Below, piece by piece: positions 15,799 through 49,149 of a DNA stretch of 64,000 nucleotides. The position numbers and the translations under genes are program-made. Numbering within the stretch: the first letter of the stretch is position 1; each line of letters begins with the position of its first letter. This DNA comes from an uncultured Thermoleophilia bacterium (lineage in GTDB: Bacteria; Actinomycetota; Thermoleophilia; Gaiellales; Gaiellaceae), in contig CAVQXR010000002.1 in the NCBI GenBank assembly GCA_963717955.1, positions 371,256 through 435,255 on the forward strand. The letters run 5' to 3'. The notes under the pieces are model-generated. The model was not told the DNA's origin and searched no databases. It saw only the letters and a list, made by a program, of their open reading frames with translations.

Positions 15799-16210
15799 GT
15801 CTAGATGGTCGATCGGAAATTGTGGTGCTGGCGGGGGTGGGCGAGACCAAGCCTGGCCGCGGTACTCCGTTGCTCGTACCAGAGGTACGGGCAACGAGCG
15901 AGCGTGGTTCCGGGCGCCGGTATCGGCCGCCATCCGGCGGTGTCACGGGTTCCGGTCAATCGCCGATCAATCATCGAGCTTTCGAGGAGGATCGCGGCCG
16001 ACGGCCGCAGCGCGCAGGAGCGCAGAACCTCAGGATAGCCGGAGCAGCGTCGTGCTCCGTCCCGGATCGTCCCGGTGATGCTCCGGCGCGTGAAACGCCC
16101 GACCGTTGGGCGTCTGGTAGCCTTCGCGGCCTGATGCGCTGACCCGCCCCGTTTCACGTTGAGCTTCCGCGACGTCCCGGTTGGGGTGCCGCGGTGACCG
16201 AGGGCGAGAG

Positions 16211-18376: not shown

Positions 18377-19564
18377 GTGACGACCTCGACCAGAGTCCCC
18401 GCCCTCGACCCTCTCGACCTCCTTGCGATCGATTCGCTCCTCGACGAGGAGGAGCGCGCGGTTCGCGACACGGTGCGCCGGTTCGTGCGTGAGCAGATCG
18501 TTCCCGAGGTGGGGGACTGGTTCGAGCGGGGCATCCTGCCTCGCGAGGTGCTCGGCGAGCTGGCGAAGCTCGGCCTGTTCGGGATGCATCTCGACGGCTA
18601 CGGGCTGCCGGGGGCGAGCGCGGTCGTCTACGGCCTGACGTGCCTGGAGCTCGAGGCCGGCGACACCGGGATCCGCAGCGCCGTCTCGGTGCAGGGCTCG
18701 CTCGCGATGTTCGCCATCTGGAAGTGGGGCTCCGATGAGCAGAAGGAGCGCTGGCTGCCCGCGATGCACCGGGGCGAGGTGATCGGGTGCTTCGGGCTGA
18801 CGGAGCCCGATGCCGGCTCCGACCCGGGCGCGATGAACACCCATGCCCGCCGCGACGGCTCCGACTGGGTCATCAACGGGACGAAGATGTGGATCACGAA
18901 CGGCACGATCGCGGACATCGCGATCGTATGGGCGCGCACCGGCGACGGTGAGATCCGGGGCTTCGTCGTCGAGCGCGGGTTGCCGGGTTTCACCGCCCCG
19001 GAGATCCACCGCAAGCTGTCCCTGCGAGCGTCCGTGACTTCCGAGCTCGTGCTCCAGGACGTCCGCGTCCCGGGCGACAGCATGCTCCCGGGCGCCTCGA
19101 CGCTCCGCGGCCCGCTCTCGTGCCTCAACGAGGCGCGCTACGGGATCGTGTGGGGCGCCGTCGGCGCCGGACGCGCCTGCTTCGAGGCCGCGCTCGAGTA
19201 CGCGAAGGAGCGGATCGTCTTCGGGAAGCCGATCTCCTCGTACCAGCTCACCCAGCAGAAGCTGGCCGAGATGGCGCTCGAGCTGAACCGCGCGACGCTC
19301 GTCTCGCTCCACATCGGGCGGATGAAGGACGCGGGGACGCTGCGGCCCGAGCACGTCAGCCTCGGCAAGATGGGCAACGTCCGCGGTGCGCTCGAGGTCG
19401 CGCGCTCGGCACGCACGATCCTCGGCGGCAACGGGATCACGCTCGAGTACCCGGTGATCCGGCACATGAACAACCTCGAGTCCGTGCTCACGTACGAGGG
19501 GACGCACGAGGTGCACACCCTCGTCGTCGGGAACGCGCTCACGGGCGTTCAGGCGTTCCGCTAA
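18377..19564 (+). CDS. gcdH: glutaryl-CoA dehydrogenase-type acyl-CoA dehydrogenase
   Basis: GCFGLTEPDAGSDPGAM...WITNG and C-terminal YEGTHEVHTLVVGNALTGVQAF match the GCDH pattern. GTG 18377 is preceded by GGAGGCAGG. The upstream part of the track ORF overlaps the repeat. Confidence 0.8.
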   Translation: MTTSTRVPALDPLDLLAIDSLLDEEERAVRDTVRRFVREQIVPEVGDWFERGILPREVLGELAKLGLFGMHLDGYGLPGASAVVYGLTCLELEAGDTGIRSAVSVQGSLAMFAIWKWGSDEQKERWLPAMHRGEVIGCFGLTEPDAGSDPGAMNTHARRDGSDWVINGTKMWITNGTIADIAIVWARTGDGEIRGFVVERGLPGFTAPEIHRKLSLRASVTSELVLQDVRVPGDSMLPGASTLRGPLSCLNEARYGIVWGAVGAGRACFEAALEYAKERIVFGKPISSYQLTQQKLAEMALELNRATLVSLHIGRMKDAGTLRPEHVSLGKMGNVRGALEVARSARTILGGNGITLEYPVIRHMNNLESVLTYEGTHEVHTLVVGNALTGVQAFR

Positions 19565-19568
19565 GGAT

Positions 19569-19602
19569 GCGTCCCGCAGCGCACGGGCGCTCTGCGGGAC
19601 GC
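19569..19602 (+). terminator. GC-rich hairpin immediately after the gcdH stop
   Basis: gcgtcccgcag-cgcacgggcgct-ctgcgggacgc, an 11-bp perfect stem. No U-tract. Confidence 0.45.
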
Positions 19603-19606
19603 AGGA

Positions 19607-19773
19607 CTAGTGGTCACTCCGGGAAGTTCGGGGCCTGTACGCCGGCGAAAACCGAGCAGGCCTAGGACGCAGGGAGCCCCGATACAGGGAGATATCGGTG
19701 CGACCGAGGACGACGGCATGCGAAGCGTTTGCAGCCGCGCGAAGGGTGGCGAGCTTCCCGGAGCGAGCACTAG
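19607..19773 (+). repeat. CTAG-bounded inverted-repeat element, copy B (167 bp, MITE-like)
   Basis: Left end ctagtggtcactccgggaag matches the reverse complement of the right end, ctagtgctcgctccgggaag (18/20). The interior aligns with copies C and D. Confidence 0.85.
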
Positions 19774-19782
19774 AGTCCCGAC

Positions 19783-20163
19783 GTGCGGCTGATCGTCGCC
19801 AGCACCGTCGCTCTCGCCGCGAACGCGGTCGCGCTGTTGATCGCCGCGGCGGTGCTCGGCGGCTTCGAGGTCGGAAACCTCGCCTTCCCGATCCTCGTCG
19901 TGATCTTCACGGTCGTCTCGATCCTGGTGTCGGCCCTCGTCCGCTCGATCGTCCGGAGCTACGCCGCGCCGGCGGCAGCGCTCACCGGGCTGATCTCGGC
20001 GTTCCTGTCGCTGCTCGTCACCGACCTCGTCACGGACAAGCTCCAGATCGAAGGGGCGGGCGCCTGGATCGTCGGCACGTTCCTCGTCTGGCTCGCGTCG
20101 CTCGTCTTCACGCCGATGCTGCGTGGGCGGGGCGACCGGAAGCTCGGCCGCGACCGGGGGTGA
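19783..20163 (+). CDS. small 4-TM membrane protein (phage-holin-4_2-like family)
   Basis: 126-aa ORF with GTG start and four hydrophobic segments. The family call is by resemblance only. Confidence 0.55.
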   Translation: MRLIVASTVALAANAVALLIAAAVLGGFEVGNLAFPILVVIFTVVSILVSALVRSIVRSYAAPAAALTGLISAFLSLLVTDLVTDKLQIEGAGAWIVGTFLVWLASLVFTPMLRGRGDRKLGRDRG

Positions 20164-26579: not shown

Positions 26580-26747
26580 CTAGTGCTCCGTCTCAGAAAT
26601 CGCCTTGCACTCCAGGCGGCTGCAACGCGTCGCCATGCGGCGTCCTCGGTCGCGCCCGTATTCACGAATACGGGCGCTCCCTGCGTCCTTGCCTGGCTCG
26701 CGTTTCGCGCGCTCTAGCGTCAAGGGAATTCCGAGACGGAGCACTAG
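26580..26747 (-). repeat. CTAG-bounded inverted-repeat element, copy C (168 bp, best-preserved copy)
   Basis: ctagtgctccgtctc ... gagacggagcactag, with perfect 15-bp terminal inverted repeats (19/21 extended). Orientation is assigned relative to copy B by interior alignment. Confidence 0.9.
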
Positions 26748-30279: not shown

Positions 30280-30299
30280 CGCCGGACATCATCGCGGCC

Positions 30300-30461
30300 G
30301 TGTCCGACGGAGCGGTCTCCCGTGCTCCAGGCAGCTGCGGCGCGTCGCCATGCGCCGTCCTGGGTCGCGCCCGCCTCCACCGAGACGGGCCTTCGCTCGT
30401 CCCTGCCCGGGCTGCGTTTCGTGCCCTGGAGCGGCAGGGAATCTCCGGGGCGGGGCACTAG
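30300..30461 (-). repeat. CTAG-bounded inverted-repeat element, copy D (left end diverged or truncated)
   Basis: The right end ...ctccggggcggggcactag and the interior (gtcgccatgcgccgtcctgggtcgcgccc...) align with copy C. It fills the 193-bp divergent intergenic region. Confidence 0.7.
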
Positions 30462-34794: not shown

Positions 34795-34920
34795 CTCTTC
34801 GGTTCCAGCGAGACTCGATTCCCGGGGGACTCGGCTCCTGGGCTTCGGCTCCCGTGGGGCTCGACCGCAACGACGCGTCCGCGGGCGAGGGCGGCGAGGC
34901 GGCGAGAAGACGGCACGGGC

Positions 34921-35008
34921 GAGGAGGCCGAGCCGACACGTCGAGGAGGGCGAGCCGGCCCGGCGAGGAGGGCGAGCCGGCCCGGCGAGGAGGGCGAGAT
35001 GTGAACTG
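34921..35008. repeat. 22-bp tandem repeat: two perfect units (34943-34964, 34965-34986) flanked by degenerate units
   Basis: gaggagggcgagccggcccggc twice. The preceding unit gaggaggccgagccgacacgtc matches about 17/22. The following partial unit is gaggagggcgagat. Confidence 0.8.
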
Positions 35009-46897: not shown

Positions 46898-47350
46898 ATG
46901 TCGAGCGAACACCACCTCGCCTACAAGGAGCCCGAGAAGATCAAGTCGATCGACGCCGAGTTCCTCTCGGGGAAGCGGTTCCCCTACCAGGAGAACCCGT
47001 CGCTCGTCGAGGACGTCGACCTGATGGCGTTGACGCCGGGCAAGGACCTCAACTGGCTCGAGGACGTCCATCTCCTCGAGGAAGACGGCGTCCCCGCGGT
47101 CTTCGATCGCTACTCGAACAGCTTCATCAAGATCTACTTCCCGATCCCCGAGGGGCGCGAGGACGAGATGGCCCGCAAGGTGCTGATGACCCACCTGACC
47201 TCGGGCAACTCCTACGGCATCCAGCTGAAAGAAGTCCACTGCAAGTTTCCGCAGCCGGAGCTGGGGTCGTGGGTCGAGGAGTCGGCGACGGTCGGGACAG
47301 CCTGGAAGCGCCAGGTTCTCGAGGGCTTCGAGAAGCCGACCGGGCACTAG
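46898..47350 (+). CDS. hypothetical protein, last gene of the GmaS/Mgs-like operon
   Basis: 150-aa ORF starting 10 nt after the upstream stop. Host-like codon usage and no motif recognised. Confidence 0.5.
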   Translation: MSSEHHLAYKEPEKIKSIDAEFLSGKRFPYQENPSLVEDVDLMALTPGKDLNWLEDVHLLEEDGVPAVFDRYSNSFIKIYFPIPEGREDEMARKVLMTHLTSGNSYGIQLKEVHCKFPQPELGSWVEESATVGTAWKRQVLEGFEKPTGH

Positions 47351-47458
47351 CGGCCGGCTTGGCCGGCCGCGACCCGCGATCGCGGGCGCGGAAGCGCCTA
47401 GGCGGCTGAGCGGCCGGCTCGGCCGGCCGCGACCCGCGATCGCGGGCGCGGAAGCGCC
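47349..47458. repeat. two 50-bp direct repeats (49/50 identical) separated by 10 bp, each able to form two GC hairpins
   Basis: 47349-47398 and 47409-47458 both read agcggccggct[t/c]ggccggccgcgacccgcgatcgcgggcgcggaagcgcc. They lie immediately after the stop at 47348-47350. Confidence 0.85.
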
Positions 47459-49060: not shown

Positions 49061-49149
49061 CTAGTGCTCCGTCTCGGAAGTGGCTTGACGATTCCGGCGC
49101 CGCTTTGCAGCCGCCCGGGATCCAAGGGATTTCCGGGACGGAGCATTAG
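49061..49149 (+). repeat. CTAG-bounded inverted-repeat element, copy E (89-bp internal-deletion derivative)
   Basis: ctagtgctccgtctcggaa...ttccgggacggagcattag. Both flanks align to the outer 30-45 nt of copy C, and the central part is absent. Confidence 0.8.

Follow-up and report, generated by a model that had tools for sequence, protein, structure and literature searches.

The window analysed here, a 64-kb stretch (64,000 nt, G+C ~70%) of a contig from an uncultured Thermoleophilia bacterium, contains several copies of a repeat, three of which (B, C and D) had been singled out in an earlier note. We identify this repeat with high confidence as a non-autonomous, 168-bp transposable element of the miniature inverted-repeat type (MITE), belonging to the IS630 family. 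In our leading interpretation, to which we assign a probability of roughly 0.55, the IS630-mobilised MITE carries a separate structured module that acts as a protein-recognised hairpin.

Under this interpretation, the MITE would be mobilised in trans by IS630-family transposases, inserting at the TA within CTAG, and its interior would constitute a separate module of ~100 nt that folds into a rod on one strand. From the outside in, the predicted rod comprises a variable outer helix, a second helix (P2), a fixed purine-rich segment in which AAGGACGCAGGGAG (the 5′ core) lies opposite CGACCGAGGACG (the 3′ core), and a variable apical hairpin. We infer that the module works in the form of a hairpin made of a single strand, most probably RNA, whose fixed non-Watson-Crick segment would be recognised by a putative conserved protein of the host or of the element, with the helices serving solely for presentation. 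The MITE would spread the module, some copies would be retained after decay of their ends, and copies placing the purine-rich, Shine-Dalgarno-like strand in the sense of an operon would tend to disappear. As to the mode of action, a putative protein-recognised RNA hairpin is our best guess, held with moderate to low confidence.

Several samples of the family underlie what follows. The genome set derives from one genome per species (GTDB), scanned with the exact 23 nt of the 3′ core. For the metagenome set, a scan with the terminal-repeat sequence CTAGTGCTYCGTCYCGGAA yielded at least 120 loci. The terminal-repeat set consists of 30 copies picked solely by their left terminal repeat and is thus unbiased for the core (mean pairwise identity of 78%); the full-length alignment comprises 33 copies, namely those fetched by terminal repeat together with B, C and D. 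Finally, a covariance model, R1, was built from 25 short copies. A search of the genomic loci with R1 returns 55 forward-strand copies at E <1e-7, including additional diverged copies, while within the window it matches B, C and D only. Minimum-free-energy folding of copies with their flanks over-extended into the GC-rich flanking sequence, and an alignment extended outwards was used instead.

The IS630-family MITE and its copies in the window

An nhmmer profile built from B, C and D recovers all three copies where the earlier note had placed them, at E-values far beyond chance, along with a fourth copy (E) and a weak remnant. Exact matches to the 28-nt core pattern of that note occur in C and D, where chance alone would give 0.00. 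In all, the 64-kb window holds 4–5 family copies; the copies and their parts are listed below, with majority fractions taken from the terminal-repeat set.

19607..19773, + strand: copy B, a complete 167-bp MITE with C-TA-G on each flank (nhmmer E 1.5e-40)
19607..19626, + strand: left terminal inverted repeat of B, CTAGTGGTCACTCCGGGAAG, which pairs with 19754-19773 in the fold and aligns to the family terminal repeat
19663..19676, + strand: 5′ core block of B, TAGGACGCAGGGAG (family consensus AAGGACGCAGGGAG; majority fraction 0.94)
19677..19700, + strand: apical hairpin of B with a ccgata/tatcgg stem, variable in sequence with pairing kept (10/11 helix pairs covary)
19701..19712, + strand: 3′ core block of B, CGACCGAGGACG (majority fraction 0.93)
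19754..19773, + strand: right terminal inverted repeat of B, CTTCCCGGAGCGAGCACTAG, placed by pairing in the fold of B and by the family alignment
26580..26747, - strand: copy C, a complete 168-bp MITE, nearest to the family consensus, with both terminal repeats at 0-1 mismatch (nhmmer E 5e-49)
26690-26677 and 26652-26641, - strand: 5′ core and 3′ core, respectively, within copy C
30294..30461, - strand: copy D, with the left terminal repeat and 3′ core (30367-30356) intact and the 5′ core and right end decayed (nhmmer E 7e-37)
49061..49149, + strand: copy E, an 89-bp internal-deletion derivative in which both terminal repeats are present and the core and apical hairpin are gone
16050..16110, + strand: possible decayed left-arm remnant, weak (nhmmer E 0.017), reading GTGCTCCGTCCCGGA... 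followed by a GTGAAACGCC-like stretch

Copies B and C each fold into a single rod (-89 kcal/mol, z -6.1, and -106.7 kcal/mol, z -9.95, respectively) and score 27.7 and 69.2 bits with R1. Copy D has no rod fold (z -0.05) and gives only a local match to R1 (9.9 bits). Copy E, which has kept its ends without the core, shows that ends and core are separable.

The assignment to IS630 comes from the ends of the element. Among the loci listed, which are the scope of all counts of long elements here, the spacing of terminal repeats has a sharp peak at 168 bp, with a few deletion derivatives of 57–126 bp, variants of 174–249 bp, and nine elements of 1137–1224 bp (L074, L138 and L150, 1194 bp; L075, L077 and L175, 1140 bp; L123 and L152, 1137 bp; L153, 1224 bp). 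These nine long elements bear the same CTAGTGCTCCGTCYCGGAA ends as the MITE, have CTAG flanks, and each contain a single open reading frame (ORF) of ~320–380 residues. The encoded proteins match the Pfam domains DDE_3 and HTH_32/29/23 as well as the NCBIfam model NF033545, "IS630 family transposase" (scoring 279 and 193.5 bits where the cut-off is 100). The MITE itself is smaller than ~300 bp and lacks a transposase gene, containing only incidental short ORFs. At least three clearly distinct lineages of IS630-family transposase share the CTAGTGCTCCGTCYCGGAA terminal repeat, and in the 1137–1140 bp elements, the stop codon of the transposase is the terminal TAG of the repeat (...SETEH*).

The flanks are of the expected kind. 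IS630 elements duplicate a TA upon insertion at the TA within CTAG. We observe C-TA-G on both sides of B, of C and of all nine autonomous elements, and likewise around E except for one changed base at its right end, which is consistent with IS630-type TA duplication at CTAG; most MITE copies have the TA followed by a variable base. The core, by contrast, is absent from the autonomous elements (9/9), and E likewise has both ends and no core; what the MITE carries between its ends is therefore a passenger rather than transposon sequence. For the same reasons, transposase binding, one of the possible roles of the core named in the earlier note, is unlikely.

The conserved core and the covarying rod

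The genome scan yields 55 loci, nearly all in separate species (~50 species). The carriers are metagenome-assembled genomes (MAGs) of Solirubrobacterales, Gaiellaceae/Gaiellales and Thermoleophilaceae (Thermoleophilales), the three orders all belonging to the class Thermoleophilia, and of unclassified Actinomycetota. The majority of these loci (51/55) hold intact copies, the remainder being a chance match (L054), a partial copy (L024), a copy cut by the end of its contig (L047) and a copy with an internal deletion (L029). Only two matches, L054 and L047, fall outside Actinomycetota. The former (Chloroflexia, 2061-2083) is a chance match to the 23-mer in coding sequence and is not accompanied by a 5′ core. 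The latter (4-26 on a 3.4-kb contig of a "Chloroflexota" MAG) is the genuine right half of a MITE truncated at the contig end, and this contig may be mis-binned. Viral contigs gave zero matches to either core pattern, and the search thus reveals no phage link. Based on similarity of the flanks, the genomic copies represent 34 independent loci, nine of which are common to two to six species.

Conservation is concentrated in the two core blocks. In the terminal-repeat set, the majority fraction is 0.94 for the 5′ core and 0.93 for the 3′ core, falling to 0.90 in the right terminal repeat, 0.85–0.89 in the arms, 0.75–0.85 in P2 and the linker, and 0.69 in the apical hairpin. In the intact genomic copies, a second block (GCCAGGCAAGGACGCAGGGAG, 5′ of the variable hairpin) is equally conserved even though it lies outside the search pattern. 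The core is less extensive than in the earlier note, which described 35 nt nearly identical in the three copies of the window. Copy B shares GCGACCGAGGACG only, after which indels set in, and a search allowing up to three mismatches finds C and D alone; the rest of the proposed core (CGCATGGCGACGCG..GCAGC) corresponds to a variable helix and an arm (0.75–0.85). That the core is kept across ~50 species nevertheless rules out recent common ancestry, raised in that note as a possible refutation, as its full explanation.

The terminal sequences differ among copies: many genomic copies lack CTAGTG ends, and others end in TA followed by GTGG... or GTGC..., with a total length of ~160–170 bp. The module is much older and more widespread than the MITE subfamily seen in the window, and it occurs with several different terminal sequences or with none.

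Around the fixed core, pairing is maintained while sequence changes. For the 33 full-length copies, RNAalifold resolves one continuous rod of 54 pairs, 29 of which show compensatory changes. In the 55 core-bearing genomic copies, 95.1% of cells are paired, compared with 77.8% after shuffling and 26–45% in slid controls, and double changes are found at 24/37 pairs, with none of 500 shuffles matching the observed values. Covariation is seen at 12/14 pairs of the outer helix and at 10/11 pairs of the apical hairpin in this set, and in the intact copies, the helix that closes the whole structure is one that varies from locus to locus. The P2 helix covaries as well (GCCAGGC/GCATGGC, GCCGGGC/GCCCGGC and GCAGCGC/GCGATGC). 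When P2 and the arms are paired across the element as a rod, 93.9% of cells are paired versus 86.7% when shuffled, with compensatory changes at 12/21 pairs and 0/500 shuffles equal. Compensatory changes thus exceed those of shuffles in both the genomic and the full-length alignments (0/500), and the many double changes uphold the view that conservation here is structure-like rather than plain decay of terminal inverted repeats.

The specific helices that had been drawn earlier fare less uniformly. Of the three said to covary, the central hairpin stands, with pairing kept as the sequence differs (10/11 pairs), and the other two do not. The outer helix (ccttg/caagg) and the hairpin with a CGAAA loop are paired in 79.5% of cells versus 78.9% of shuffled ones, with two compensatory cells. 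The same nucleotides pair better across the rod, indicating that these two assignments were misread cross-arm pairings. One way of drawing the fixed segment itself pairs GG(A)CGC with G(A)CGCC in a helix, each strand bulging out a single A, and adds a 1x3 loop plus tandem G-A pairs beside the apical stem; as the segment never varies, this drawing is a modelled one.

Two classes of variant are also informative. In a 213-bp variant (L073, L078, L079 and L093), an extra hairpin of ~45 nt is inserted within the 3′ core, between CGAC and TGAGGACG, with the remainder kept. In a "nested" variant (L004, L005, L006, L018, L026, L033, L034, L043 and L049), the apical domain repeats a GGGGAGC[hairpin]GUGACCCGAGGA module, representing an internal duplication of the core motif. 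In such variants, the additional hairpins enter at loops, and the retention of the core supports a modular scaffold.

Strand polarity, selection and competing explanations

Folding differs between the two strands. Cells with G-U or U-G outnumber those with A-C or C-A by 101 to 19 in the genomic set and by 140 to 13 in the terminal-repeat set, and a hand count on the full-length alignment shows that the asymmetry is spread over ~19 pair columns, versus ~2. In agreement, the forward RNA is stabler than its reverse complement in 53/55 copies (-63.4 vs. -54.3 kcal/mol, mean gap of 9.1, Wilcoxon p 1.5e-10). Folding is thus predicted to be strand-specific, with the bulged-A and tandem G-A features of the drawn segment appearing on the forward strand only. 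Single-stranded DNA would yield the same G-U/A-C signal as RNA.

Copies fill their intergenic spacers tightly. Flanking genes often have their stop codons within the TGACG/CGTCA that terminates the rod, at a distance of -3 in 17/54 copies. No clear orientation bias is apparent among young copies, those whose terminal repeats are perfect (18 vs. 13), and the bias among older copies is described below. Replication direction was considered as its cause and rejected: GC skew around the copies, taken in the direction of the element, is 0.004 +/- 0.003, and the bias with respect to distant genes at the same loci (150 antisense vs. 107 sense) is much weaker than that for immediate neighbours. We infer that sense-oriented copies are lost over time; with these, the operon mRNA would come to contain three purine runs resembling Shine-Dalgarno sequences, together with an AUG in some subfamilies.

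Sites shared between species provide a further line of evidence. In the orthologous groups, the element is 87–99% identical, compared with 70–92% for flanking coding sequence. When the selection 23-mer is excluded, the identity of the element lies mostly at 0.79–0.96 (0.70–0.96 over all pairs, some of the low values being due to misaligned insert columns) versus 0.68–0.81 for third codon positions. Only orthologues with an intact 23-mer were sampled in this comparison, those with a mutated core being left out. We regard this as good evidence, from sequence comparison, that the hairpin module is under purifying selection at fixed intergenic sites where it has no recognisable ends.

An example is the tpiA-gpmI junction, which is filled in seven species. 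In six of these (L004, L005, L018, L033, L043 and L049), the element exactly fills the spacer, with the tpiA stop and the gpmI start kept in the feet of the rod (CATGACG...CGTCATG). In the seventh (L029, 6013-6080), the copy is reversed, and a deletion between two GAC repeats has removed its apical half, leaving the ATG of the core in frame with gpmI. In four relatives (TpiA 84–88% identical) with the same gap-pgk-tpiA-gpmI operon, the junction is empty, with either an ATGA/TGATG overlap of stop and start or a gap of 4–5 nt. The short form at this junction is flanked by CATG(A) rather than TA and is thus without an IS630 footprint; it is for this form without ends, and only at tpiA-gpmI, that a filled/empty polymorphism is seen. 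For the long form, no empty sites were recovered at B and C, where synteny is broken (a GntR gene is in the place of B, and synteny is lost upstream of gloA).

A number of observations weigh against the interpretation of the module as a protein-recognised hairpin. Relative to immediate neighbours, the forward strand of copies in the core-perfect genomic set runs antisense 80 times and sense 23 times, and when only independent spacers between co-directional genes are considered, 18 copies are antisense and 5 sense (p 0.011). Such a polarity is awkward for an element acting inside an mRNA, as it calls for an unannotated antisense transcript or a role as single-stranded DNA, and we detect neither a sigma-70-like promoter nor a U-tract terminator in B and C. 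The loss of sense copies, if correct, leaves unexplained why the forward strand is conserved in the antisense copies. In addition, the helices within the core are invariant and consequently have no covariation support, the cells in the covariation counts are not independent events, and selecting the genome set by an exact 23-mer inflates both the apparent invariance of the core and the identity between orthologues.

Among the alternatives, the one that survives best, though we consider it unlikely, is a purely selfish MITE constrained at the level of DNA alone. Here, the rod would be a long imperfect palindrome kept by transposase end-matching and intrastrand templated repair, the core would be bound as double-stranded DNA by the transposase or by an architectural protein of the host that aids transposition, and neither an RNA nor a host function would exist. 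This account is favoured by the clear identity of the element as an IS630 MITE, by young copies lying in either orientation as neutral insertions would, and by the lack of promoter and terminator in B and C. The strands of the core moreover hold a direct repeat, AGGACGC, that could represent two protein sites, and an IHF site has such a role in Correia elements (PMC2229807). However, G-T and A-C mispairs should be equally frequent in a palindrome maintained as duplex, unlike the skewed counts and the difference in strand stability that we observe, and templated correction should erase an asymmetric core, yet the core is the best-conserved part. The autonomous elements do not contain it, and it stays constant between lineages that differ in their terminal sequences. 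Finally, orthologous copies without ends keep the core and change more slowly than third codon positions, and an aid to transposition would be pointless in copies that are immobile.

A hairpin acting in cis in the mRNA in the manner of ERIC, REP or Correia repeats, by protecting 3′ ends, providing an RNase site or causing attenuation, with no special role for the core, is in our view improbable. The exact filling of spacers and the positions of flanking stops in the base of the rod (TGACG...CGTCA) are what this reading would predict, both strands fold stably, and the literature on ERIC and Correia elements documents such roles and their orientation dependence (PMC3049150, PMC2229807). It nevertheless explains neither the fixed core sequence across orders nor why the strand that folds better and bears the G-A and bulged-A features mostly differs from that of the mRNA, and the absence of a U-tract in B and C speaks against it.

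We give slightly less credence to a hairpin of single-stranded DNA, formed during replication or repair, that serves a strand-specific DNA enzyme such as an HUH/Y1 transposase (REP/REPIN-RAYT, IS200/IS605). Strand-specific folding with tolerance of G-T pairs, variable stems surrounding a fixed recognition segment, the location of copies at gene ends (including spacers between convergent genes), the non-IS630-type flanks of the short form at tpiA-gpmI, and the finding that the better-folding strand is usually not the mRNA strand are all compatible with this scenario. Against it, we find no link to replication direction, with a GC skew near zero and a bias of 58% for distant genes versus 78% for immediate neighbours. 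The rod (100–170 nt) is far longer than REP units and has no conserved tetranucleotide at its foot, and the IS630 partners are already sufficient to explain how the long form moves. RAYT and TnpA genes did not turn up, with no search aimed at them.

The remaining possibility, raised in the earlier note, is that the core is a ribosome-binding site and start codon opening a mini-ORF coupled to the downstream gene, which we consider very improbable. The coordinates reported for B are correct (ATG at 19718-19720, TGA at 19790-19792), the stop does overlap the GTG start of the next gene (19783), GAGGA-N7-ATG is found in C, D and the 51 intact genomic copies, and the in-frame ATG of L029 would suit coupling; however, the genomic copies were chosen by a pattern that contains the ATG, whereas only 7 of the 30 copies in the terminal-repeat set have it, such that AGGA followed by ATG is not a feature of the family. 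The ATG sits in the covarying P2 helix (pairs 56/119 and 57/118), and the Shine-Dalgarno-like strand is antisense to its neighbours in most older copies. ORFs starting from the core ATG in genomic copies range from 7 to 468 codons with no conserved peptide and have only their first residues in common, encoded by the conserved DNA itself, which bears out the suspicion that a peptide function is unlikely. The SETEH* ending shared by mini-ORF and transposase proved trivial, as it is the terminal repeat read in one frame.

With the alternatives so weighed, an IS630-mobilised MITE carrying a protein-recognised hairpin module remains the interpretation that we favour. A more specific form of it can be offered only tentatively, as a real possibility at less than even odds: the ~100-nt rod with its fixed AAGGACGCAGGGAG / CGACCGAGGACG may be an undescribed class of structured RNA (possibly single-stranded DNA) of Thermoleophilia, spread by IS630-type MITEs, repeatedly domesticated at gene junctions, and acting from the operon-antisense strand, for example as a protein-binding antisense RNA.

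A few other features of the window deserve mention. Immediately to the left of copy B lies a perfect 11-bp inverted repeat (GCGTCCCGCAG / CTGCGGGACGC) with a 12-nt loop (19569-19602), directly after the stop codon of an acyl-CoA dehydrogenase gene (TAA, 19562-19564); this hairpin has no U-tract and was not called as a terminator by the scan. The closest named relative is the Gaiellales MAG GCA_046330455.1 (L176/L178), in which the acyl-CoA dehydrogenase is 92% identical in amino-acid sequence and a gene for a GntR/FCD regulator lies between it and a 126-aa gene. In the window, this regulator gene is absent, and the hairpin and copy B occupy its place (19565-19782). Two repeats are unrelated to the MITE: a 22-bp tandem unit (GGCGAGGAGGGCGAGCCGGCCC-like) present as three overlapping copies at 34918-34998, and a 60-bp tandem duplication, 98% identical, at 47349-47458.

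Relation to known repeat families

To our knowledge, bacterial MITEs are usually treated as decaying transposon shells, with RNA-level roles documented for few of them (ERIC, Correia and BOX), and we know of no described repeat or RNA family from Thermoleophilia, which are abundant, almost uncultured soil actinobacteria. Rfam gives no match at the gathering score across the window, a permissive Rfam scan (E up to 1) of three element-bearing loci returns no relevant family, and the library of papers searched for the literal core sequences and for RNA motifs and MITEs of Thermoleophilia contains no description of this repeat. The significance of the family lies in the combination of a MITE with identified IS630 partners and a passenger module that is not transposon-derived, conserved across at least three orders, with compensatory change on one strand and apparent purifying selection that persists after loss of the ends. 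If functional, the module would provide a clear example of a structured nucleic-acid element that a transposon disseminates and that afterwards becomes domesticated at many loci, and it would define a new RNA motif plus a putative protein partner. The antisense polarity is unexpected and supplies a concrete hypothesis.

REP and REPIN sequences, which are associated with RAYT proteins, consist of hairpins with variable stems around fixed recognition bases, forming strand-specific single-stranded structures at the 3′ ends of genes. A conserved tetranucleotide marks the foot of the hairpin in REP units, which are 20–40 nt long, and a REPIN is a symmetric doublet of such units. In contrast, the family described here has an asymmetric fixed segment in the middle of a rod of 100–170 nt, and its long form has IS630 ends and TA flanks. 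Correia elements, for their part, resemble the present family in having TA-flanked terminal repeats starting with TAGTG... We know of no transposase for Correia elements and likewise of no transposase partner for ERIC.

ERIC/IRU elements of enterobacteria, which are 127-bp imperfect palindromes, resemble the present family in being long imperfect palindromes that form a single hairpin. They are similar as well in an interspecies conservation above that expected for neutral repeats, in their transcribed intergenic sites beside stop codons, and in orientation-dependent effects (PMC2229807, PMC3049150). ERIC exerts its effect as part of the mRNA, with an RNase E site arising in one of its orientations, whereas in the family described here the strand that folds better is mostly antisense to the mRNA; there is also no sequence similarity, and the hosts belong to another phylum. 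The Correia/NEMIS elements of Neisseria share the rod-like RNA hairpin, the occurrence of variants with internal deletions and, in the form of an IHF site, an internal module that binds protein and does not depend on the ends (PMC2229807); RNase III cleaves Correia RNA (PMC3049150). In Correia, however, this module is a site in duplex DNA, whereas the constraint observed here is single-stranded and strand-specific.

The nearest match at the level of the individual member is an IS630-mobilised MITE such as RUP, a 107-bp MITE of Streptococcus pneumoniae that is thought to be mobilised by IS630-Spn1 (PMC2229807, PMC3049150). Like RUP, our family is small, non-coding, intergenic, multicopy and capable of forming a stem-loop, with terminal inverted repeats that match IS630 and insertion at TA (PMC2229807, PMC3049150), and here, the matching autonomous IS630 elements were found directly. 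RUP has been reported as recent and without any further signature of structure or function (PMC2229807), whereas the present family has a fixed asymmetric core throughout the class, helices with compensatory changes, strand-specific folding, and orthologous copies without ends. What sets it apart from RUP, ERIC and Correia alike is thus a class-wide asymmetric core, compensatory and strand-specific evolution, the association of one core with several types of ends, and the selected copies that no longer have ends at all.

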